64,000 nucleotides of DNA from Nitrososphaerota archaeon. GTDB lineage: Archaea > Thermoproteota > Nitrososphaeria > Nitrososphaerales > JACPRH01. The position numbers were made by a program, and so were the translations under genes. The stretch covers positions 35,233-99,232 of the forward strand of contig JACPRH010000005.1 in assembly GCA_016190055.1 (NCBI GenBank). The letters run 5' to 3'. The notes beneath the pieces were generated by a model. That model was not told the origin of the DNA. It saw only the letters and a list, made by a program, of their open reading frames with translations, and did not search any database. Below, in pieces: positions 21,685-51,097 of the stretch; within the stretch, counting starts at the first letter, position 1; each line of letters begins with the position of its first letter.

Positions 21685-22875
21685 TTACTCTACGTGGACC
21701 CTGAATTGGTCGATGTCTTCGCCGACGACGCTGAGGAGTTCACGGCATGCGCGCTCCACATCCTTCGACTGGGTGATGTAGCGGCCAACTATCAGTATGT
21801 CCGCGCCTTTTTCGATAGCTTCCTTCGCGGTCTCAGCGTTAATGCCTCCTGCGACGGCGACGTAGAGCTTCTTGTCAGCCAGCTCAGTCTTGACCTTCTG
21901 GATGATCTGCCACCTTGTCTTTCCACCCTCCTCTTCATCGATGCCTCGGTGCAGGATCACGATGTCAGGAATATCCTTCAAACCCTTCAGTACAGCCAGC
22001 GGATCCGCGACATCCATCATATCTATAGCGGAGTAGATGCCGAGCCGCCTCGCCTCATAGACGAACTTCTCAAGGGTCGCCTTGGACGCTAAACCTGATG
22101 CGACTACTGCGTCAGCAGTCTCGTTAAAGGATATGTCAACCTCTACCTGACCAACATCCAGCGTCTTCAAGTCAGCTATGATGAAGACATCCTGGTTCGC
22201 CTCGCGGAGATCACGGATGACTTTGAGCCCATACTTCTTTATGAGCGGTGTACCGGCTTCAAGCAGAATACGGTCGCTCTTTGGAAGCTGAGATATCACC
22301 TTCTTAGCTGATTCGATATCAGGGTTGTCTAGCGCAATCTGTAGGTAAGGCCGCATCCATAGACGTGGAACTCTGAAGCCCATAATCGGGTGTTTCGCCC
22401 TATCCTTATCATACATTATCTTTTCGAGGCTCGGATAGTTCTGGAGCGCCCGTTTCAACGCTAGCTTCGTGGCGCCGTAATTGTAGTGATAGATTTTCCG
22501 GTAGTCGGTAGCATCAGGGTGAATGAAGACGCTGATAACTATGACAAGATTCTCAATCTGATCCTGCGGCACAACACCTTCTTCAACAGCATCAGCAACT
22601 GCCTTAGCGACAGCCGCCTGAGCTGGGCCGAATATCTTGGAGGCCTGCTCCATATCCTTGACAGTAACCTTAGGAGTAATCAGAGTGAAGGGTTTAGGCG
22701 GCAAGTTAGGCCGTATAACAGCTAGGAGAGGAGTATGTCCGGCGGAGAGCTGTGTAAAACCGTTCGCAAACGCCTGTCCAACAGGCCCCTCTTTGTCACC
22801 GATCATAAGATCGATGTGCGCGACCTCGTTACCCTCGCCTATGAGAGCTTCACCAATGAAGAACAAACTGATCAC
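21685..22875 (-). CDS. fae-hps: Bifunctional formaldehyde-activating enzyme / 3-hexulose-6-phosphate synthase (Fae-Hps)
   Basis: The N-terminal Fae block is GEALIGEGNEVAHIDLMIG...LLAVIRPNLPPKP...FGPAQAAVAKAVADAV. The C-terminal OMPDC-family HPS block is YLQIALD...LLEAGTPLIKKYG...IIADLKTLD...GADILIVGR. GTG start. Confidence 0.9.
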   Translation of the reverse strand: MISLFFIGEALIGEGNEVAHIDLMIGDKEGPVGQAFANGFTQLSAGHTPLLAVIRPNLPPKPFTLITPKVTVKDMEQASKIFGPAQAAVAKAVADAVEEGVVPQDQIENLVIVISVFIHPDATDYRKIYHYNYGATKLALKRALQNYPSLEKIMYDKDRAKHPIMGFRVPRLWMRPYLQIALDNPDIESAKKVISQLPKSDRILLEAGTPLIKKYGLKVIRDLREANQDVFIIADLKTLDVGQVEVDISFNETADAVVASGLASKATLEKFVYEARRLGIYSAIDMMDVADPLAVLKGLKDIPDIVILHRGIDEEEGGKTRWQIIQKVKTELADKKLYVAVAGGINAETAKEAIEKGADILIVGRYITQSKDVERACRELLSVVGEDIDQFRVHVE

Positions 22876-43069: not shown

Positions 43070-43765
43070 TTGACCGAAGCAGGTTACGCTAAGAAACGAC
43101 GCGCAATGGTGAATAGGCTTGTGCGCGAAGGCGTGATAAAATCTGAAGCGGTTAAACATGCCTTCCTGACTGTGCCGCGCGAGCTATTCGTCTGGGAAGG
43201 TGGCGAGACCGCTGCTTACGCTGATAGCCCGCAGCCACTAGGCATGACCGATCAAACTATCTCTGCGCCGCACATGATTGCGATTATGCTTGAGGAACTG
43301 GGTCTGAAGGTCGGAATGAGTGTTCTTGAAGTGGGTGCAGGAAGCGGCTACACGTCTGCTCTTATCAGCGAAATAGTTGCACCCTCGGAGAAAGAGTCGG
43401 AGGGTAGGGGGCATGTGACGAGCGTTGAGCTGCTTGATGAGCTTGTTCAGTTTGCGTCAGGGAATCTTGGGCGAGCAGGTTACCCCAGTGTAGTCACAGT
43501 GGTATCGGGGGATGGTACGCTTGGCTACCCTGAGAAGAATAGTGAGGAGATATACGATCGCATTATCGTGACGGCTGCGGCGCCGCATATACCGGTGTAT
43601 CTGCAGATGCAGCTGAAGAAGGGTGGGGTGCTTCTGATTCCTGTTGGGAACCCCTTGGAGCAGCTTCTGCTCCGTGTGTCTAAGAGCGAGGCCGGTGAAG
43701 TTACAAGTAGAAGCGTGATCGAGTGCATGTTCGTTCCGTTAATCGGTGAAGACGGTTTCCATTAG
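43070..43765 (+). CDS. pcm: Protein-L-isoaspartate O-methyltransferase
   Basis: VPRELFV...PLGMTDQTISAPHMIAIMLE...VLEVGAGSGYTSALI...GVLLIPVG signature blocks. TTG start. Confidence 0.9.
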   Translation: MTEAGYAKKRRAMVNRLVREGVIKSEAVKHAFLTVPRELFVWEGGETAAYADSPQPLGMTDQTISAPHMIAIMLEELGLKVGMSVLEVGAGSGYTSALISEIVAPSEKESEGRGHVTSVELLDELVQFASGNLGRAGYPSVVTVVSGDGTLGYPEKNSEEIYDRIIVTAAAPHIPVYLQMQLKKGGVLLIPVGNPLEQLLLRVSKSEAGEVTSRSVIECMFVPLIGEDGFH

Positions 43766-44082
43766 AGTTGTTTGAGGAGAGCAGTGAAGTCCTCCTCCGT
43801 TAGCCCGAAACCGTGGACAGCATTTCTTCGACTTGCTTCTAGCCCATTCTTGAATGCGATTACCGTGGGAACGGCCGGAATATCGTACCTATCCCAGAGA
43901 GGGTTATCGTCGTCGGTGATATCGGCCTTCGCGAACGTGTAATGCGGGTCTCGGCTGTACTGCTCAAAGATTGGAGCAAATCGTCTACTGTATGGACAGT
44001 AGGTGGCGTAGAACATTATCACAACTGGACGTTCGTCTTTAAGAGTCTTCTCTAGTAGAGCATCTGAAGTATCTTCAATCAT
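43762..44082 (-). CDS. Thioredoxin-fold protein with CPYS (CxxS) active-site variant
   Basis: PVVIMFYATYCPYSRRFAPIFEQ places CxxS where thioredoxins have WCGPC. cis-Pro region: IPAVPTVIAF. Convergent 4-nt overlap with pcm. Confidence 0.7.
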   Translation of the reverse strand: MIEDTSDALLEKTLKDERPVVIMFYATYCPYSRRFAPIFEQYSRDPHYTFAKADITDDDNPLWDRYDIPAVPTVIAFKNGLEASRRNAVHGFGLTEEDFTALLKQL

Positions 44083-44189: not shown

Positions 44190-44744
44190 ATGAGCCGAGA
44201 AGAACGTGAAGAGGGAGAAGGGCTGGTTAGAACCTTAAAACTCTCAGGGCGCCTGAAGAAGGAACATAGGCGAGGATGGGTTATCAAGGTTGGAATACCT
44301 GATCCAGAGTCTGTTGCAGACCACTCTTTTCGCACCGCGTTAATCGCGATGCTTCTAGGTGACTCTAGGGGACTGGATACTGGGAAAATGATGCGAATGG
44401 CCCTGATTCACGATCTTGGAGAAGCCATCATCGGGGATTTGACGCCTCTAGACACTGCGAAGCTAGAGACAAAGAAGCATGATGAAACCGAAGCCATCGA
44501 AGAAATCTTCTCAACTCTACCTAAACAGTTGAGAGAGAAGTATCTGCATCTCTGGCGAGAGCTCCGAGACGGCTCCTCAGAAGAGGCAAAACTAGTATTG
44601 GATGCAGATAAACTAGAAATGGCACTTCAAGCATCAGAATACGAGAAGGAGGGTTACCCAAAGGAGATGCTGAGCGAATTCAAAGCCTCAGCAATAAAAC
44701 GGACATATGACAAAGATATCCTCAACATAATCCACCATCTTTAA
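44190..44744 (+). CDS. HD-domain phosphohydrolase (YfbR-like 5'-deoxynucleotidase family)
   Basis: LKKEHRRGW...ESVADHSFRTALIAMLL...LIHDLGEAIIGDLTP...DADKLEMALQA. Confidence 0.8.
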   Translation: MSREEREEGEGLVRTLKLSGRLKKEHRRGWVIKVGIPDPESVADHSFRTALIAMLLGDSRGLDTGKMMRMALIHDLGEAIIGDLTPLDTAKLETKKHDETEAIEEIFSTLPKQLREKYLHLWRELRDGSSEEAKLVLDADKLEMALQASEYEKEGYPKEMLSEFKASAIKRTYDKDILNIIHHL

Positions 44745-44941
44745 CGTCAATCCAACCCGAGCCAAGCAAAATGGGGTTAAGAAGCGGCACACGCACCATT
44801 ATTCCGATAGGAATAATTTTGTCATCAAACTATTTATAGGCTAAGAGTCCCGCCTTTCCATACAGACAGATAGGTGAGAGAGAAATCGGCGAAGTAACTA
44901 AACTGGTATGCAGAGAATGCGGAAAAGAGTATACACCTACT

Positions 44942-46108
44942 ATGCGGCATCTCTGCGACGAGTGTTTTGGACCGGTTGAGGTGGCGTACGATTACGATAA
45001 GATTAAGCTAACTCCTAGCATGTTCTACGGACGCGTAAAGAGTCTCTGGCGTTACCACGAACTGTTGCCCCTGAGAGATCCTGCGAAGGCAGTGGATTTG
45101 GGAGCAGGCTTCACACCTTTGCATCGAAGCATAGGACTAGCTGAGAGGCTGGGTCTAAAGAACCTCTACATCAAGAATGATAGCGTGAACCCGAGCTTCT
45201 CGTTCAAGGATCGACCTGCAACAGTCGCGGTCTCAAAATCAATCGAGTTTGGGCTTCAAGCGGTAGGATGCCCCTCAACCGGTAACCTCGCAGCCGCTAC
45301 AGCAGCTCACGCCGCGAGAGCACAGATCCCTTGTTACATCTTCGTTCCCGCAGACATTGAACCGACCAAAATCATCCAAGCATCAGTTTACGGTGCACAG
45401 GTCGTAGCGGTTAAAGGAACATATGATGACGCGAACAGAATATTGACTCAGGCCGCTGACATCTACCGGATCGGCGTGGTGAACGTGAATATCAGGTCAT
45501 ACTATGTTGAGGGATCGAAGACCCTCGCCTTTGAGGTTGCTGAGCAGCTAGGGTGGAGAGCACCTGACCATGCGATTGTTCCAACAGCCAGTGGAGCTCT
45601 TCTCTGCGCGATCAGCAAGGGCTTTGACGAACTCATCGAAGTCAATCTGCTGGAAGAATGCGGCACCAAGATTACAGCGGCACAGGGATACGGATGCGCA
45701 CCTATAGCTGACGCCTTCAAGAAGGGTGATGAGATGGTTACACCTGTTGAGAAACCTAAGACGATCGCTAAGAGCCTCGCGATCGGCGATCCGGGAGACG
45801 GTATCTACGCCTTAAGAAAAATTAGAAAGACAGGAGGCTACGCGGAGGATCCGACTGATCAAGAGATTATTGACGGCATAAGGCTGCTCGCGAAGACAGA
45901 AGGAATCTTCACTGAGCCCGCGGGAGGAGTCTCAATTGCGACTCTGAAGCGAATGGTTGACGACGGCAGAATTGATCGGGACGAGACCGTCGTATGCTAC
46001 ATCACCGGCAACGGGTTAAAGACACCGGAGGTGGTGGCTAGCCAGCTGCCGAAGCCGTTAGTTGTGGATCCGGAGATACAGGCTCTGGCCCCAATTCTTT
46101 CAAGGTGA
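44942..46108 (+). CDS. Threonine synthase-like fold-type II PLP enzyme with N-terminal zinc ribbon (5' end probably extends upstream of the first ATG)
   Basis: PLP-lysine motif NPSFSFKDRPA and a glycine-rich loop (PTASGALLCA). The in-frame upstream sequence encodes LVCRECGKEY, completing a CxxC-x11-CxxC ribbon with LCDEC. No ATG/GTG/TTG lies in frame between the stop at 44837 and 44942. Confidence 0.8.
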   Translation: MRHLCDECFGPVEVAYDYDKIKLTPSMFYGRVKSLWRYHELLPLRDPAKAVDLGAGFTPLHRSIGLAERLGLKNLYIKNDSVNPSFSFKDRPATVAVSKSIEFGLQAVGCPSTGNLAAATAAHAARAQIPCYIFVPADIEPTKIIQASVYGAQVVAVKGTYDDANRILTQAADIYRIGVVNVNIRSYYVEGSKTLAFEVAEQLGWRAPDHAIVPTASGALLCAISKGFDELIEVNLLEECGTKITAAQGYGCAPIADAFKKGDEMVTPVEKPKTIAKSLAIGDPGDGIYALRKIRKTGGYAEDPTDQEIIDGIRLLAKTEGIFTEPAGGVSIATLKRMVDDGRIDRDETVVCYITGNGLKTPEVVASQLPKPLVVDPEIQALAPILSR

Positions 46109-46398
46109 GCATGAAGATGGCGAAGATACGTTTCACAGTACCCGGTGTACTCGCAAGCGTCACAGGCGGTAACCGGCAGATTGACATGGAGGCATCCACA
46201 GTGAAAGAAGCGCTCTCCAACCTCGTATCGAAGTATGGGGAGGAGTTCGAGCGCAGAGTCTTTGACGTTACCGGTCAACCGAAGCGGCTACTGAACTTCT
46301 ACGTTAACGGGAAGAATGTTCGCTTCCTATCCAACCTTGATACACAGTTGAAGGATGGAGATGAAGTGATGCTTCTGCCAGCGGTGGGCGGAGGTTGA
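46105..46398 (+). CDS. MoaD/ThiS-family ubiquitin-like sulfur-carrier/SAMP-like protein ending in Gly-Gly
   Basis: ~93-97 aa beta-grasp-sized protein. MoaD-like pattern: IRFTVPG...LLNFYVNGKNV...LKDGDEVMLLPAVGGG*. GTG 46105 overlaps the upstream TGA. ATG 46117 has a GGTGA SD 8 nt upstream. Confidence 0.8.
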   Translation: MSMKMAKIRFTVPGVLASVTGGNRQIDMEASTVKEALSNLVSKYGEEFERRVFDVTGQPKRLLNFYVNGKNVRFLSNLDTQLKDGDEVMLLPAVGGG

Positions 46399-46408
46399 GC
46401 CAACAGAG

Positions 46409-47524
46409 ATGGCGTTTTCACGTGAAGAGATTGAGCGCTATTCACGGCAGATTGTCCTAGACGAGATTGGGTACGAGGGTCAGCTGCGGCTGAAGAAGGG
46501 CAAGGTTCTGCTAATAGGAGTCGGCGGACTAGGCTCTCCAATAGCTCTTCAACTCACCTCGATGGGTGTAGGTAACCTGCGCATCGTCGACCGCGACGTT
46601 GTGGAGCTCTCCAACCTTCACCGACAACCTCTGTACAGCACCGACGATATTGGATACCCGAAGGTTGAGGTGGCTGCAGCGAAGCTCAAAGCCAAAAACC
46701 CAGATGTAAAGATAGAGGCTCTCACAGTCTCAGTTAACCAAGACAGTATAAAGGAGATCATAAAGGACGTAGACGTAGTTGTCGACGGCCTTGACTCCAT
46801 CGAAACCCGCTACGTCGTGAACCGAGCCTGCATCGAGGCCGGCATCCCCTTCGTTTACGGAGCGGCCATCGAAACAATAGGCTCAGCCACAACGGTAATC
46901 CCGCGAGAAACAGCGTGTATCGAGTGCTTCGCACCTAATCTTGAGGACGATCAGCTCCCCAAATGCGGAACCGAAGGAGTCCACCCGTCAATCCTCAGCA
47001 TAATCGGCAGTATAGAGGCGTCTGAAGCAGTCCGCGTACTCATGGGAAAGAAACCGAATCTAGCGGGTCGACTAGCCTATTTTGACGTAAAGGATCTCAC
47101 CTTCGACCAGATCAACATCGAGAGGCAGGACACCTGCCCAACCTGCGGCGACCAGCCGCATCAGGCCCCTAAGCCGATTCACAGAAGGCTGGTAAGGGAG
47201 CTCTGCGGACGGGAGCAGGGAAAACGAGCATTAGCAATAACACCTAGGGAGAACCTGAACCTTGACGTACAGGATCTGACTCAGAGACTCAAGACCAGAG
47301 GCTTCACGATCGAAGTTGCAGCCAAGATGGGCATAACCTTCCGATACAACCCCGAGGTCACCGTCAGCATCCTGTCAAGCGGAGTCGCAGTGGTAGTCGG
47401 AGTCAAAGAGGAGATCGAGGCGCTCACAATATACAGCGACGTCATATCCGAGGAGATGCAGGTCGACCTGAACCGCGTAGATCCAAGCCTACCAACCCTG
47501 CTGGCGAAGCCGCGGAAAATCTAA
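46409..47524 (+). CDS. E1-like ThiF/MoeB/UbaA-family adenylyltransferase with an uncharacterised ~120-aa C-terminal extension
   Basis: YSRQIVLDEIGYEGQLRLKKGKVLLIGVGGLGSP nucleotide loop, RIVDRDVVELSNLHRQ, and a zinc pair CIECF...CPTCG. The C-terminal region is not a rhodanese pattern. Confidence 0.85.
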   Translation: MAFSREEIERYSRQIVLDEIGYEGQLRLKKGKVLLIGVGGLGSPIALQLTSMGVGNLRIVDRDVVELSNLHRQPLYSTDDIGYPKVEVAAAKLKAKNPDVKIEALTVSVNQDSIKEIIKDVDVVVDGLDSIETRYVVNRACIEAGIPFVYGAAIETIGSATTVIPRETACIECFAPNLEDDQLPKCGTEGVHPSILSIIGSIEASEAVRVLMGKKPNLAGRLAYFDVKDLTFDQINIERQDTCPTCGDQPHQAPKPIHRRLVRELCGREQGKRALAITPRENLNLDVQDLTQRLKTRGFTIEVAAKMGITFRYNPEVTVSILSSGVAVVVGVKEEIEALTIYSDVISEEMQVDLNRVDPSLPTLLAKPRKI

Positions 47525-47592: not shown

Positions 47593-48723
47593 TTGGCTAA
47601 ATACCGAGTTCCCGTTATGCCCGGTGACGGAATCGGACCTGAAATCATAGCTGAAGGCAGAAAAGTCATCGACACAGTGAGCGAAGTCGATTCATTCGAG
47701 ATTGACTGGATTGATTACCCTCACGGCGCGGATCATTACCTCGCTACAGGCGAGTTGATCAGCGAAGACACTTTGAAGGAGCTTAGAAAGTACAGATCAA
47801 TCTATCTGGGAGCACTCGGAGACCCACGGGTTGAACCGGGGATTCTGGAGCTCGGAATCCTTCTACGCCTCCGCTTCTACATGGATGAGTACGTCAATCT
47901 AAGGCCAATCAAGCTCTTTGACGGCGTCGACACTCCGATCAAGTACAAAACCTCGAAGGACATCAACTTTACAGTGGTTCGTGAGAACACCGAGGACTTT
48001 TACGTCGGCCTCGGAGCACGAGTCAAGAAGGGAAAAAGCCACACAAAACTAGACTTGATCCGTGACACATATCAAGTAAAGTTCGGGATTGATGTAGAAA
48101 CAGACGCTGAGGAAGTTGCGTTTCAACTCGGAGTCATGAGCCGTCATGGCGCCAGACGCATAATCAAGTATGCGTTTGATTATGCTAAAGATCATAACCG
48201 GACTAAAGTTACGGCGGTTGACAAGGCCAATGTCATCACAAACTTGTACGGGATGTGGCGCGAGATTTGCCGAGACGTCGCTAAAGGATATCCAGGCATC
48301 GAAAACGACTTCGCCTTCGTCGACGCTACAACCATGTGGTTCGTGAAGAACCCTGAGTGGTTTCAGGTGCTCGTAACACCCAACCTCTTCGGAGACATCA
48401 TAACCGACCTAGGCGCGATGATCCAAGGCGGCCTCGGGTTCGCTGCAGGCGGCAACATCAACCCAGGAGGCACATCAATGTTTGAACCCATTCATGGCTC
48501 AGCCCCCAAGTACAAGGGAATGAACAAGGTGAACCCAATCGCAACAATCCTCTCAGGGGGCCTCCTTCTAGAAAACCTTGGACTCCGCAAATCAGCCGAT
48601 AAGCTGGAGAGAGCAGTAGCTGAAGTCATAAAGGAAGGCAAGGTCAAAACCTACGATATGGGCGGAAAATCAACCACAAGCGACATGGGAGACGCCGTCG
48701 CAGCCAAAGTCAAGACGCTTTAA
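47593..48723 (+). CDS. Isocitrate/isopropylmalate dehydrogenase family protein (tartrate/D-malate/3-IPM dehydrogenase-like)
   Basis: [38 protein letters not shown] and [22 protein letters not shown] blocks. Confidence 0.85.
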
Positions 48724-50068: not shown

Positions 50069-51097
50069 TTGGCTAAGAAGATCGCATTGATTCGAGGAGA
50101 CGGCGCCGGACCAGAGCTGGTCGACGCGATGCTTGCAGTCCTGAATGCAGTTGGAACAAAGGCAAATATCATCACCTGCGATGCAGGGCTTGAGTGGTGG
50201 GAGGAGCACGGGGGACCATCCTTCATCCCACCAGAGACTTGGGATGTTTTGAAGTCTTCAGATGCCTGTTACAAGGGCCCTACCACAACGCTTCCCACCC
50301 CAAACACGCCTAGAAGCGTCGCAGTCGGTATTCGCCAATACTTCGATCTCTATGCGAACATTCGGCCGATAAAGACATTCCCAGGCCAAGTCGGTCCGCT
50401 GGGTGAAGTTGACTTTGTTTGTGTCCGCGAGGGTACTGAGGGCTTATACTCGGGCCTTGAACACCGGTTGAGCGACGACTGCGCAATCAGCATCAGGAAA
50501 ATTACGCGGAAGAGCTGCACCCGAATTGCAAAGTATGCCTTTGACATGGCGCGTGAGAAGAAGTGGAAGAAGGTTGTTGCAATCAATAAGGGAAATATTC
50601 TGAAGGAGACTGATGGAATGTTTCTCAAGATCGTCGAGGAGGTTGCTAAAGGCTATCCGGAAATTGAGTGGGAGCCTTACTTTGTCGATAACTTCAGCCA
50701 GCAACTAATCAAGAATCCACAGCGCTTCAACCAGAATATTGTGATGAGCACCAACCTCTTCATGGACATTCTCTCCGAGGAAGCTTCAGGCCTAGTAGGA
50801 AGCATCGGTTGCATCTACTCAGCTAACATCGGCGAAAAATACGCAATGTTCGAGCCGGCTCATGGAAGCGCCCCTAAGTACAAGGGAATGAATAAGGTGA
50901 ACCCAGTAGCCACAATCCTCTCAGGCGCCTGGATGCTCGAGTACATCGGCGAAAAGAAGCTGTCCGACGCCATCTTCAAAGCAACCATCGAAGTGATCAA
51001 GGAAGGCAAGCATGTCACATACGATCTAGGCGGCAGCGAAACCACCTCAGGCATGGCTAAGGTCATCGCCAAGAAGGCAACTGCAATCCTAAAGTAA
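50069..51097 (+). CDS. Isocitrate/homoisocitrate/3-isopropylmalate dehydrogenase family protein (second paralog)
   Basis: IRGDGAGPEL, YANIRPIK, REGTEGLYSG and [22 protein letters not shown] blocks. TTG start. Confidence 0.85.
   Translation: MAKKIALIRGDGAGPELVDAMLAVLNAVGTKANIITCDAGLEWWEEHGGPSFIPPETWDVLKSSDACYKGPTTTLPTPNTPRSVAVGIRQYFDLYANIRPIKTFPGQVGPLGEVDFVCVREGTEGLYSGLEHRLSDDCAISIRKITRKSCTRIAKYAFDMAREKKWKKVVAINKGNILKETDGMFLKIVEEVAKGYPEIEWEPYFVDNFSQQLIKNPQRFNQNIVMSTNLFMDILSEEASGLVGSIGCIYSANIGEKYAMFEPAHGSAPKYKGMNKVNPVATILSGAWMLEYIGEKKLSDAIFKATIEVIKEGKHVTYDLGGSETTSGMAKVIAKKATAILK

Follow-up and report, generated by a model that had tools for sequence, protein, structure and literature searches.

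The window analysed here, a 64-kb stretch of DNA from a soil archaeon, contains three co-directional genes on the + strand (44885–47524). They encode a PLP enzyme of the threonine synthase (ThrC) family, a 93-aa protein of the ThiS/MoaD fold (Ubl), and an activating enzyme of the ThiF/MoeB type (E1). The intergenic gaps comprise 8 nt (PLP gene/Ubl) and 10 nt (Ubl/E1). Pfam analysis of the three ORFs displays matches to PALP (9.9e-70), ThiS (3.5e-15) and ThiF (2.3e-75). The three ORFs are present as described in the initial annotation. The features of the locus are:

44830..44838, + strand: ctatttata, putative TATA-like promoter of the operon; motif conserved among relatives, function presumed from archaeal promoter architecture
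44873..44877, + strand: Shine-Dalgarno-like GGTGA, located 7 nt ahead of the ATC start
44885..46108, + strand: MetM-like PLP enzyme of fold type II (ThrC family), 407 aa, probably initiated at AUC
46117..46398, + strand: MetO/CysO-like sulfur carrier (ThiS/MoaD beta-grasp, Pfam ThiS), 93 aa, ending in ...PAVGGG-stop
46409..47155, + strand: E1-like adenylyltransferase core (ThiF/MoeB fold, Pfam ThiF), residues 1–249
47159..47524, + strand: C-terminal TBP-like domain of the E1 (weak Pfam TBP match), residues 251–371, with Cys266 in ELCG

The start of the PLP gene had previously been placed at 44840, which is merely the first codon behind an upstream stop; the PLP ORF contains no ATG, GTG or TTG ahead of the ATG at 44942. 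The N-terminus of homologs (MGEVSKLVC...) aligns with the ATC at 44885. The sequence ctatttata is found at equal distance upstream of the start in the related loci L010, L011, L001, L096 and L097, and the pair of GGTGA and ATC is common to the window and L010, L096 and L097, three relatives that are 76–86% identical. GGTGA is missing from relatives whose start position carries ATG. Since the homolog starts align there and the codon is preceded by GGTGA and the TATA-like box, the PLP gene most likely spans 44885–46108 and is initiated at an AUC codon. Initiation at Met20 would cost the N-terminal zinc ribbon (C9, C12, C24, C27) its first CxxC.

Two alternative starts had been proposed for the Ubl, a GTG overlapping the stop codon of the PLP gene and the ATG at 46117. 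Both are present in the sequence (GTGA at 46105–46108; candidate ATG codons at 46111 and 46117), and a GGTGA at 46104–46108, a Shine-Dalgarno element for the Ubl, overlaps the stop codon of the PLP gene. ATG 46117 is most likely the start, yielding 93 aa as called in relatives. The Ubl terminates in GG-TGA (46390–46398), and the ATG of the E1 is seen at 46409, at the distance from this stop that had been described before. An upstream HD-domain gene and a thioredoxin gene were not accepted as parts of the operon: beside the cluster, the former is conserved in the window clade and two further thaumarchaeal groups only, the latter in the window clade alone.

Carrier protein and activating enzyme

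The Ubl passes the subfamily model TIGR01687 (moaD_arch) with 59 bits. Among solved structures it is closest to CysO of M. tuberculosis (3dwg_C, 1.2e-12) and to the carrier chain of 4n6e (1.5e-12); MoaD structures match with E-values of 7e-7 to 8e-3, SAMP1 of H. volcanii with 0.1. Identity with a MetO-like protein of Nonomuraea amounts to 36%. Judged by these comparisons, the Ubl is nearer to CysO-type amino-acid sulfur carriers than to MoaD or SAMP1. As the carrier ends exactly at GG, Mec-type trimming would not be needed for its maturation.

The E1 is matched in the PDB by ThiF (1.2e-48) and MoeB (2e-42). It displays a GVGGLG nucleotide loop at residue 37, a Zn tetrad (C170, C173, C243, C246) and a crossover-loop cysteine (C186), all of these cysteines being invariant across 58 sequences, as is Cys266 of the ELCG motif. 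The Pfam TBP match of the C-terminus is weak (E 0.0016, below threshold); the protein fits the architecture reported by Makarova and Koonin (2010, PMC2948915), in which an E1 core is followed by a TBP-like domain at the C-terminus. The score against the MoeZ model is 178.6 bits (cut-off 647), and neither Pfam nor NCBIfam searches reveal a rhodanese domain in the E1, so that a sulfur-loading catalyst is not evident in the operon. The exact protein has no entry in the assembly index.

Archaeal E1 (UbaA) systems are dual-use, and the E1 of the window may also serve other Ubls of the cell. A Ubl/E1 pair devoted mainly to SAMPylation-type modification of proteins, the ThrC-like enzyme being a target or bystander, would agree with this dual use and with the partial matches to the SAMP1 and UbaA models, and would be compatible with the homocysteine route favoured below. 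However, both matches stay under the curated cut-offs (SAMP1 equivalog: 47.3 bits vs. 60; UbaA equivalog: 232.3 bits vs. 450), and SAMP1 structures match at the above E-value of 0.1 only. Co-inheritance with one PLP-enzyme clade in bacteria without SAMPylation (see below) argues for a metabolic role. We therefore regard a mainly modifying function as extremely unlikely.

Phylogeny and gene linkage of the PLP enzyme

The PLP enzyme exceeds the cut-offs of the NCBIfam threonine synthase models (NF006050: 310.7 bits, cut-off 303; TIGR00260: 289.1 bits, cut-off 167.1), which counts against a MetM-like reading, and genes of its clade carry the database name "threonine synthase". As the name threonine synthase is attached to Nonomuraea clade members as well, these models evidently fail to separate the MetM-like clade. 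No CysM or CysK models occur among the best 25 of 38 NCBIfam matches, which are headed by ThrC models. Cysteate synthase of the coenzyme M pathway was rejected as a candidate (TIGR03844: 69 bits, cut-off 324.9). Sequence searches of the PDB yielded no structure nearer to the PLP enzyme than canonical ThrC.

The PLP lysine is K108 (codon at 45206). The enzyme is 45% identical to the product of a SAM-riboswitch-controlled Nonomuraea gene, 50–53% to cyanobacterial, Abditibacterium and Anaerolineae clade members, 36–39% to four bacterial ThrCs of solved structure, and 30% to Arabidopsis ThrC. A neighbor-joining (NJ) tree with bootstrap was computed from 44 sequences, including 33 sampled members linked to a Ubl gene. 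The window protein falls inside the Ubl-linked clade (bootstrap 100/100) together with all 33 of these sequences, and the verified ThrCs of T. thermophilus, M. tuberculosis, B. subtilis, A. aeolicus and Arabidopsis lie outside, as do five unlinked long-form "thrC" genes. Clustering with verified ThrCs had been named in the initial annotation as one part of the outcome that would speak against its proposal; the tree places the window enzyme in a separate clade.

Five positions of T. thermophilus ThrC (88, 155, 157, 160 and 188) distinguish the two groups. They are occupied by T, S, N, R and N in 6/6 canonical ThrCs and by L, N, R, Y and S in 33/33 clade members; the window residues at 88, 155, 160 and 188 are L135, N202, Y207 and S236. 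In T. thermophilus ThrC, the substrate/product phosphate is reportedly held by T88, S155, R160 and N188, and this phosphate directs the addition of water (Omi 2003, Murakawa 2011). The clade swaps T88L, S155N, N157R, R160Y and N188S (T. thermophilus numbering) may provide a testable handle on how a PLP enzyme that adds water at C-beta could be turned into one that adds a protein thiocarboxylate at C-gamma.

A genome scan with window-specific peptide patterns retrieved orthologs at no fewer than 80 loci. A same-strand Ubl lies directly 3′ of the ThrC-like clade gene in 84/89 sampled loci (a script total of 83 plus L071, whose Ubl was masked by a long stop-to-stop ORF), and the contig ends there in 3 of the 5 loci without a downstream Ubl. 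The E1 is located downstream in about 59/65 untruncated archaeal loci. Taxa with the Ubl-linked clade include Nitrososphaeria, Bathyarchaeia, cyanobacteria, Chloroflexota and actinomycetes. Among six loci of ThrC relatives outside the clade, a Ubl or E1 is found nearby in none (0/6). The linkage of ThrC-like gene and Ubl is far beyond chance, and conservation of the neighbourhood, which had been suggested as a check, is confirmed by these counts. Nitrosopumilales keep the cluster of ThrC-like gene, Ubl and E1. In ammonia oxidisers the Ubl is fused to the E1, the junction being ...ILPAVAGG followed by S/A-E-L.

These data bear on the current annotation, i.e. an ordinary threonine synthase beside a MoaD/MoeB pair for molybdopterin synthesis or tRNA thiolation. 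It is in line with the database names, the moaD_arch match of the Ubl, and the designation of the thaumarchaeal Ubl-E1 fusion as MoaD-MoeB in the literature (PMC11237513). On the other hand, the clade lies apart from verified ThrCs and has an altered active site, its bacterial members are under SAM riboswitch control (see below), and the linkage is kept across two domains of life, whereas the unlinked long-form thrC genes lack it. With respect to the MoaD/MoeB pair, the Ubl is closer to CysO than to MoaD, the 64-kb window contains no MoaA, MoaE, NcsA or rhodanese genes, and Moco genes are absent from the recurrent neighbours of the 89 loci. Molybdoenzyme and Moco genes are reported missing from most ammonia-oxidising archaea outside Nitrososphaerales, yet Nitrosopumilales retain the cluster. 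We assign the current annotation a very slight chance of being correct.

No second ThrC-family ORF is present in the 64-kb window, and 1.4 Mb of related loci contain none except one in Anaerolineae L069. Besides the MetM-like gene, Nonomuraea possesses a canonical ThrC that shares 65% identity with the M. tuberculosis enzyme, and canonical thrC2 is present in cyanobacteria too. A protein search with the Nonomuraea clade member returned Streptosporangiales matches only, and tblastn of this protein against the plasmid collection retrieved itself and haloarchaeal thrC genes, with no Streptomyces match.

The "moonlighting ThrC" of Microcystis aeruginosa (PMC12172450), encoded beside a metO-like gene and belonging to a lineage distinct from canonical ThrC, forms threonine from O-phosphohomoserine and deaminates threonine in vitro; methionine was not raised in vivo. 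Hence, clade members may keep ThrC activity. This would suit a dual-function enzyme, i.e. the threonine synthase of the cell that also forms homocysteine when the carrier thiocarboxylate is present, with O-phosphohomoserine split between both products. The ThrC equivalog scores and the lack of a second ThrC-family gene in the 64-kb window point in the same direction. However, bacteria with clade members retain canonical ThrC as well, and the residues that we take to position the phosphate are replaced in every clade member. Dual function appears unlikely to us.

Methionine-linked signals and a possible route to homocysteine

SAM riboswitches lie immediately upstream of three bacterial clade genes (loci L009, L069 and L072), one in Nonomuraea (68.7 bits) and two in Anaerolineae (80.3 and 76.3 bits). 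Their presence on actinomycete and Chloroflexota clade genes speaks for homocysteine/methionine rather than cysteine. The window itself contains no Rfam family match, i.e. neither a riboswitch nor another methionine-linked regulatory signal. SAM riboswitches are known essentially from bacteria, and hence none would be expected in an archaeon. A homoserine dehydrogenase gene is located between Ubl and E1 in two Bathyarchaeia, Asd and a JAB domain are encoded near Anaerolineae and cyanobacterial clusters, and a cysteine-desulfurase-like gene is found near clusters of Hecatella, Bathyarchaeia and Hadarchaeota. The ORFs of the 64-kb window include neither a JAMM hydrolase (JAB/MPN) nor a homoserine kinase; these absences, like those of a riboswitch in the window and of a rhodanese domain in the E1, count against the homocysteine route.

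The initial annotation had proposed the Ubl thiocarboxylate as sulfide donor for cysteine, homocysteine or another thiol. A route to cysteine, or to a thiol other than homocysteine, would apply the CysO/CysM logic to an enzyme built like ThrC that takes O-phosphoserine or some other acceptor, and M. tuberculosis CysO is indeed the best solved relative of the carrier. However, the partner enzyme is of the ThrC type and not of the CysM/CysK type, clade members are accompanied by homoserine dehydrogenase, Asd and riboswitches that respond to SAM, not to cysteine, and the cysteate synthase score lies far under its cut-off. In addition, O-phosphohomoserine is the substrate of the characterised relative. 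We consider this option very unlikely. The homocysteine part of the proposal is supported by the SAM riboswitches and the MetM/MetO precedent.

We hypothesize that the operon probably encodes an archaeal protein-thiocarboxylate route to homocysteine of the MetM/MetO type. The earlier suspicion that the ThrC-like enzyme may be something other than a mere threonine synthase gains support from the separate clade, the conserved linkage to a GG-terminated carrier and the MetM/MetO precedent. Along this route, the E1 would consume ATP and adenylate the 93-aa carrier at its C-terminal glycine, as suggested by its ThiF/MoeB fold and the free GG end. Sulfur would turn the acyl-adenylate into the carrier thiocarboxylate (-COSH), and may be provided by a cysteine-desulfurase persulfide or by sulfide, possibly via the invariant C186 or C266 of the E1. 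The ThrC-like enzyme would bind O-phospho-L-homoserine on Lys108 and eliminate phosphate. The carrier thiocarboxylate would then attack C-gamma, in place of the C-beta water addition of threonine synthase; the presumed orthology with MetM and the remodelled active-site positions point to this step. Homocysteine might be released by direct thioester hydrolysis, or by an S-to-N acyl shift and a JAMM hydrolase encoded elsewhere, and would be methylated to methionine.

A more far-reaching reading holds that in Nitrososphaeria, including the globally abundant ammonia oxidisers, the cluster is the main or only homocysteine route and involves a new sulfur-loading mechanism. Here, the invariant Cys186 and/or Cys266 (TBP-like domain) of the rhodanese-less E1 would relay sulfur, the fused carrier of ammonia oxidisers would be freed from the E1 by GG-specific cleavage, and the window would represent the unfused state of their system. 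We put this forward tentatively, as a possible but doubtful extension.

If the homocysteine route is true, genes named "threonine synthase" and "MoaD-MoeB" in hundreds of archaeal and bacterial genomes would constitute the homocysteine branch of methionine synthesis, and metabolic reconstructions of Thaumarchaeota, Bathyarchaeia and cyanobacteria would have to be corrected. It would also give a reason why ammonia oxidisers without molybdoenzymes keep a "MoaD-MoeB" fusion, and would extend across two domains of life a pathway described so far in a single Streptomyces study.

Relation to known systems

MetM/MetO of Streptomyces albulus forms homocysteine from O-phosphohomoserine and the MetO thiocarboxylate (Hasebe et al. 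2024, Appl Environ Microbiol 90:e01247-24, as related in bioRxiv 10.1101/2024.10.14.618325 and in PMC12172450). These sources describe MetM as a ThrC homolog that is often misannotated as ThrC (bioRxiv 10.1101/2024.10.14.618325), a SAM riboswitch upstream of S. albulus metM, and 51.6% identity of the Microcystis clade homolog beside the metO-like gene with S. albulus MetM (PMC12172450). As in S. albulus, a ThrC-homologous PLP gene of the window lies directly upstream of a GG-terminated carrier of the ThiS/MoaD fold with predicted E1 activation. The window protein also shares its clade with SAM-riboswitch-controlled actinobacterial and Chloroflexota genes. It may be orthologous to S. albulus MetM, to which it is linked indirectly, through a chain comprising the Nonomuraea gene with its riboswitch and MetO-like neighbour and the cyanobacterial relatives. 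In contrast to S. albulus, which uses MoeZ (adenylyltransferase/sulfurtransferase), the window has its own rhodanese-less E1 in the operon; its carrier ends at GG and would require no Mec-type trimming, and it features an archaeal host, a probable AUC start codon and no SAM riboswitch. The archaeal operon is most likely a further member of the recently described MetM/MetO system. Since both the chemistry and the pair of genes had been reported in 2024, the operon is no categorical novelty.

The window protein shares about 53% identity with the sampled cyanobacterial clade members. The Microcystis "moonlighting ThrC" has been characterised as threonine synthase and deaminase, whereas the window enzyme is proposed to form homocysteine. 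The CysO-CysM-MoeZ-Mec pathway of M. tuberculosis resembles our reading of the window in that the sulfide donor is a protein thiocarboxylate and the fold-type II PLP enzyme supplied by it has an O-phospho amino acid as substrate. It differs from the window in the partner enzyme (CysM instead of a ThrC-type enzyme) and in its context (serine/cysteine instead of homoserine/methionine). Krishnamoorthy and Begley reportedly described HcyS-HcyF-HcyD-MetY of Wolinella succinogenes, where homocysteine is formed via a carrier and an E1. That pathway involves fold-type I MetY, O-acetylhomoserine and a clustered JAMM protease, in contrast to the ThrC-type enzyme and the lack of a JAMM gene in the window.

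Thaumarchaeal "Ubl-E1-TBP" or "MoaD-MoeB" fusions (PMC2948915, PMC11237513) contain E1-TBP and Ubl parts orthologous to those of the window. The searched portions of these two papers mention no threonine synthase in the context of the fusion and no tie to methionine. As in the window, a gene of the ThrC-like clade adjoins the fusions in ammonia oxidisers; by contrast, the window and its relatives encode Ubl and E1 separately, and the stop codon directly follows GG.

Gene structure of the operon and its surroundings

The operon at 44885–47524 (+) probably encodes an archaeal form of the MetM/MetO-type thiocarboxylate route to homocysteine, first described in Streptomyces albulus. The three forward-strand open reading frames described in the initial annotation are present in the sequence: a PLP enzyme of the ThrC family (407 aa; Pfam PALP, 9.9e-70), a Ubl carrier (93 aa; ThiS, 3.5e-15) and an E1 (ThiF, 2.3e-75).

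Features of the operon
44873–44877 (+), GGTGA, 7 nt 5′ of the ATC at 44885–44887
44885–46108 (+), PLP gene with apparent AUC start
46104–46108 (+), GGTGA, 8 nt 5′ of ATG 46117
46105 (+), GTG overlapping the PLP-gene stop as GTGA
46106–46108 (+), TGA, stop of the PLP gene
46111 and 46117 (+), ATG codons in the same frame as GTG 46105
46117–46398 (+), Ubl gene, protein ending ...PAVGGG, directly followed by TGA 46396–46398
46409–47524 (+), E1 gene with ATG 46409, 10 nt past the Ubl stop

Position 44840, initially taken as the start of the PLP gene, is merely the first codon after a stop and no start codon; the window sequence holds no ATG, GTG or TTG in this frame 5′ of ATG 44942. Homologs of 404–410 aa begin with MGEVSKLVCRECGKEY, and the window protein reads IGEVTKLVCRECGKEY at its N-terminus, with ATC at 44885 and a TATA-like ctatttata about 50 nt 5′ of it. 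The combination of ATC and GGTGA is common to the window and three related loci (L010, L096, L097; 76–86% amino-acid identity), whereas sister lineages carry ATG at this place and lack the GGTGA. The zinc ribbon of the enzyme has four cysteines (C9, C12, C24, C27), and a start at Met20 would lose the first CxxC. The gene thus appears to initiate at AUC, which would explain why automatic gene calls begin at Met20 and thereby lose half of the zinc ribbon; the 388-aa protein records P0001, P0008, P0014 and P0016 are examples of such shortened calls. Of the two Ubl starts considered before, ATG 46117 is adopted and GTG 46105 is not, because GGTGA lies 8 nt before the former and relatives are called at 93 aa. 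The 10-nt gap between Ubl and E1 is as previously noted (stop ending at 46398, ATG at 46409).

The remaining window carries ordinary archaeal housekeeping genes; its genes include SAM synthetase, GatA/B, AspRS, thermosome, KaiC-like ATPases and PQQ dehydrogenase. An HD-domain (YfbR-like) gene (44190–44744, +) lies directly 5′ of the operon; it also adjoins the cluster in groundwater Thaumarchaeota and one marine thaumarchaeal group, and was not seen beside it in ammonia oxidisers or Bathyarchaeia. A divergent thioredoxin gene (43762–44082, −) adjoins the cluster only in the window's own clade. Just 3′ of the operon are two paralogs of the isocitrate/isopropylmalate dehydrogenase family with a lectin-like membrane protein between them: the first (47593–48723) passes the 3-isopropylmalate dehydrogenase model, and the second (50069–51097) resembles homoisocitrate or isocitrate dehydrogenases, under every cut-off. 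The window also encodes a Fae-Hps fusion (21685–22875, −; Fae and OMPdecase-family domains, formaldehyde-activating enzyme/hexulose-phosphate synthase-like). Within these 64 kb, no second ThrC-family ORF and no JAB/MPN, MoaA/MoaE, NcsA, rhodanese or homoserine kinase gene was found, and no Rfam family matched.

Conserved linkage and a separate clade

Contig look-ups, one actinomycete chromosome and a scan of GTDB species genomes yielded 89 loci encoding close relatives of the PLP enzyme. A same-strand ThiS-like ORF follows in 84 of these, nearly always ending ...PAV[GSA]GG-stop or fused in frame to E1; of the five loci without one, three sit where the contig ends. Besides the window's own clade, the archaeal loci represent groundwater as well as marine Thaumarchaeota, Nitrosocaldales, Nitrososphaera, Nitrosocosmicus, Nitrosotalea, Nitrosopumilales, Bathyarchaeia, Brockarchaeota, Hadarchaeota and Hecatella, with E1 downstream in about 59 of 65 untruncated ones. 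Bacterial loci at 50–53% identity are from cyanobacteria, Abditibacterium and Anaerolineae. Neighbourhood conservation, proposed earlier as a check, is thereby borne out, in contrast to six loci whose ThrC-like genes fall outside the clade (32–38% identity; from haloarchaea, Chlorohelix, Aliarcobacter, Azospirillum, Mycobacterium and Bacillus), none of which has a Ubl or E1 within 3 kb. At one relative with 81% identity (L096, 4460–4618), only 52 codons of the E1 gene remain past the Ubl, followed by unrelated sequence, an apparent deletion or rearrangement.

A neighbour-joining tree built on Kimura distances over 331 columns, with 100 bootstraps, groups the 33 sampled Ubl-linked sequences, without exception, in one clade with 100% support. 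Outside lie the solved and biochemically studied ThrCs of T. thermophilus, M. tuberculosis, B. subtilis, A. aeolicus and Arabidopsis, together with unlinked long-form genes. The window enzyme hence does not group with verified threonine synthases, in line with the earlier suspicion that it may not be a plain one. It is 36–39% identical to the solved bacterial ThrCs and 30% to that of Arabidopsis; its closest relatives are from Nitrososphaerales MAGs (84–99%).

A small set of positions separates every clade member from every canonical ThrC in the alignment: T88L, S155N, N157R, R160Y and N188S (canonical to clade; numbered as in T. thermophilus, with the PLP lysine as anchor, K61 = window K108). 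At A189G, glycine is found in 33/33 clade members and alanine in five of six canonical sequences. In the T. thermophilus ThrC structures of Omi 2003 and Murakawa 2011, T88, S155, R160 and N188 reportedly bind the substrate or product phosphate, and the retained phosphate is said to direct water to C-beta. That the clade replacements would hit phosphate-binding positions is a structural reading which we treat as a lead and not as a result.

Methionine-related context and the likely product

Several clade members lie in a methionine or sulfur context. A SAM riboswitch aptamer is located directly 5′ of the member in Nonomuraea gerenzanensis (L009, 5834–5975, 68.7 bits), where a 91-aa GG-terminated carrier follows. 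SAM riboswitches likewise directly precede the ThrC-like gene in two Anaerolineae (L069, 9673–9787, 80.3 bits; L072, 9779–9890, 76.3 bits); no Ubl was detected 3′ of the gene in these two loci, although an E1 lies some 1 kb away in L072. Two Bathyarchaeia carry a homoserine dehydrogenase between Ubl and E1 (L019, 4075–5154, Pfam 2.6e-53; L028, 10559–11710, 1.3e-52). The Anaerolineae and six cyanobacterial clusters have, a few kb off, an ORF with aspartate-semialdehyde dehydrogenase and Prok-JAB (JAMM) domains (L072, 16335–17882); this stop-to-stop frame may represent a single fusion gene or a pair of neighbours. A cysteine-desulfurase-like gene recurs close to the Hecatella, Bathyarchaeia and Hadarchaeota clusters; those of ammonia oxidisers are set among histidine biosynthesis genes. 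The Nonomuraea replicon (NZ_LT559118.1), listed as a 'plasmid', is 11.85 Mb long and carries chromosomal genes, with groEL adjoining the MetM-like gene; it is evidently the chromosome.

A plain ThrC that happens to lie beside a MoaD/MoeB pair is very improbable on these data, as it conflicts with the tree, the signature residues, a linkage that spans two domains of life, and the riboswitches. Moreover, molybdenum cofactor genes are reported absent from most ammonia oxidisers outside Nitrososphaerales, yet the cluster is kept there. Cysteine or another thiol as the product is little more probable, since the homoserine and SAM context disfavours it.

A dual enzyme making both threonine and homocysteine is the most serious alternative, if still an unlikely one. 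According to one study (PMC12172450), a Microcystis 'ThrC' adjoining a metO-like gene shares 51.6% identity with MetM, and in vitro it still made threonine and deaminated threonine. The dual-enzyme reading owes its rank to these data and to the fact that, for this archaeon, the search for a further thrC covered the 64 kb. The same source states that cyanobacteria keep a second, canonical thrC. Nonomuraea resembles them in having a canonical ThrC besides its clade member, elsewhere on the chromosome (at 2.50 Mb, with 65% identity to M. tuberculosis ThrC).

Carrier, E1 and comparison with known systems

The best solved relatives of the window Ubl are M. tuberculosis CysO (1.2e-12) and the 4n6e carrier chain (1.5e-12), ahead of MoaD entries (7e-7 to 8e-3) and H. 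volcanii SAMP1 (0.1). The E1 displays GVGGLG at residue 37, a zinc tetrad (C170/C173/C243/C246) and the crossover-loop C186; C141, C186, C266 and the four zinc-site cysteines are invariant in 58/58 aligned E1 sequences. Pfam and NCBIfam profile searches detect no rhodanese domain in it. Its C-terminal 120 residues match TBP weakly, in agreement with the 'E1-TBP' architecture of Makarova and Koonin (PMC2948915). Cys266 (ELCG, residues 264–267, window 47198–47209), at the start of the TBP-like domain, is a possible sulfur-relay residue in this rhodanese-less E1.

In ammonia oxidisers (Nitrosocaldales, Nitrososphaera, Nitrosocosmicus, Nitrosotalea, Nitrosopumilales), carrier and E1 are one ORF (L008, L016, L020, L021, L027, L029 and about 35 other loci) with a strictly conserved junction, ILPAVAGG followed by S/A-E-L. 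Since this junction would block the C-terminal glycine of the carrier, it implies a putative cleavage after GG. The window and other non-fused lineages represent the split state. Surveys of archaeal Ubl systems and of gene fusions in archaea list the thaumarchaeal fusion as Ubl-E1-TBP (PMC2948915) and MoaD-MoeB (PMC11237513); as searched, both contain neither a threonine synthase in this context nor a methionine link, and Iyer et al. 2006 make no mention of threonine synthase.

Observed here are the order of the genes, a free GG terminus, the motifs of the E1 and the PLP enzyme's membership in the Ubl-linked clade. On the homocysteine route that we favour, E1 would adenylate Gly93 of the carrier, and sulfur would be passed on to give a thiocarboxylate. 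The PLP enzyme would eliminate phosphate from O-phosphohomoserine and accept the thiocarboxylate at C-gamma, and homocysteine would be released. This release may or may not involve a JAMM hydrolase of the kind employed by the CysO and HcyS systems; the window encodes none. A role of Ubl and E1 as a protein modifier would be compatible with this route, but has a very low probability in our view.

Homologs in archaea were reportedly noted by Hasebe and colleagues. In S. albulus, the sulfur-loading enzyme is MoeZ, MetO is processed by Mec (Hasebe et al. 2024, as summarised in the GapMind 2026 preprint, bioRxiv 10.1101/2024.10.14.618325), and a SAM riboswitch lies 5′ of metM (PMC12172450). Unlike that system, the window operon has its own E1, which is devoid of a rhodanese domain; its carrier needs no trimming protease, and there is no riboswitch. 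The core of a MetM-like enzyme and a MetO-like carrier is already known, and the predicted system of the window joins it as an archaeal member whose accessories vary from the known ones.
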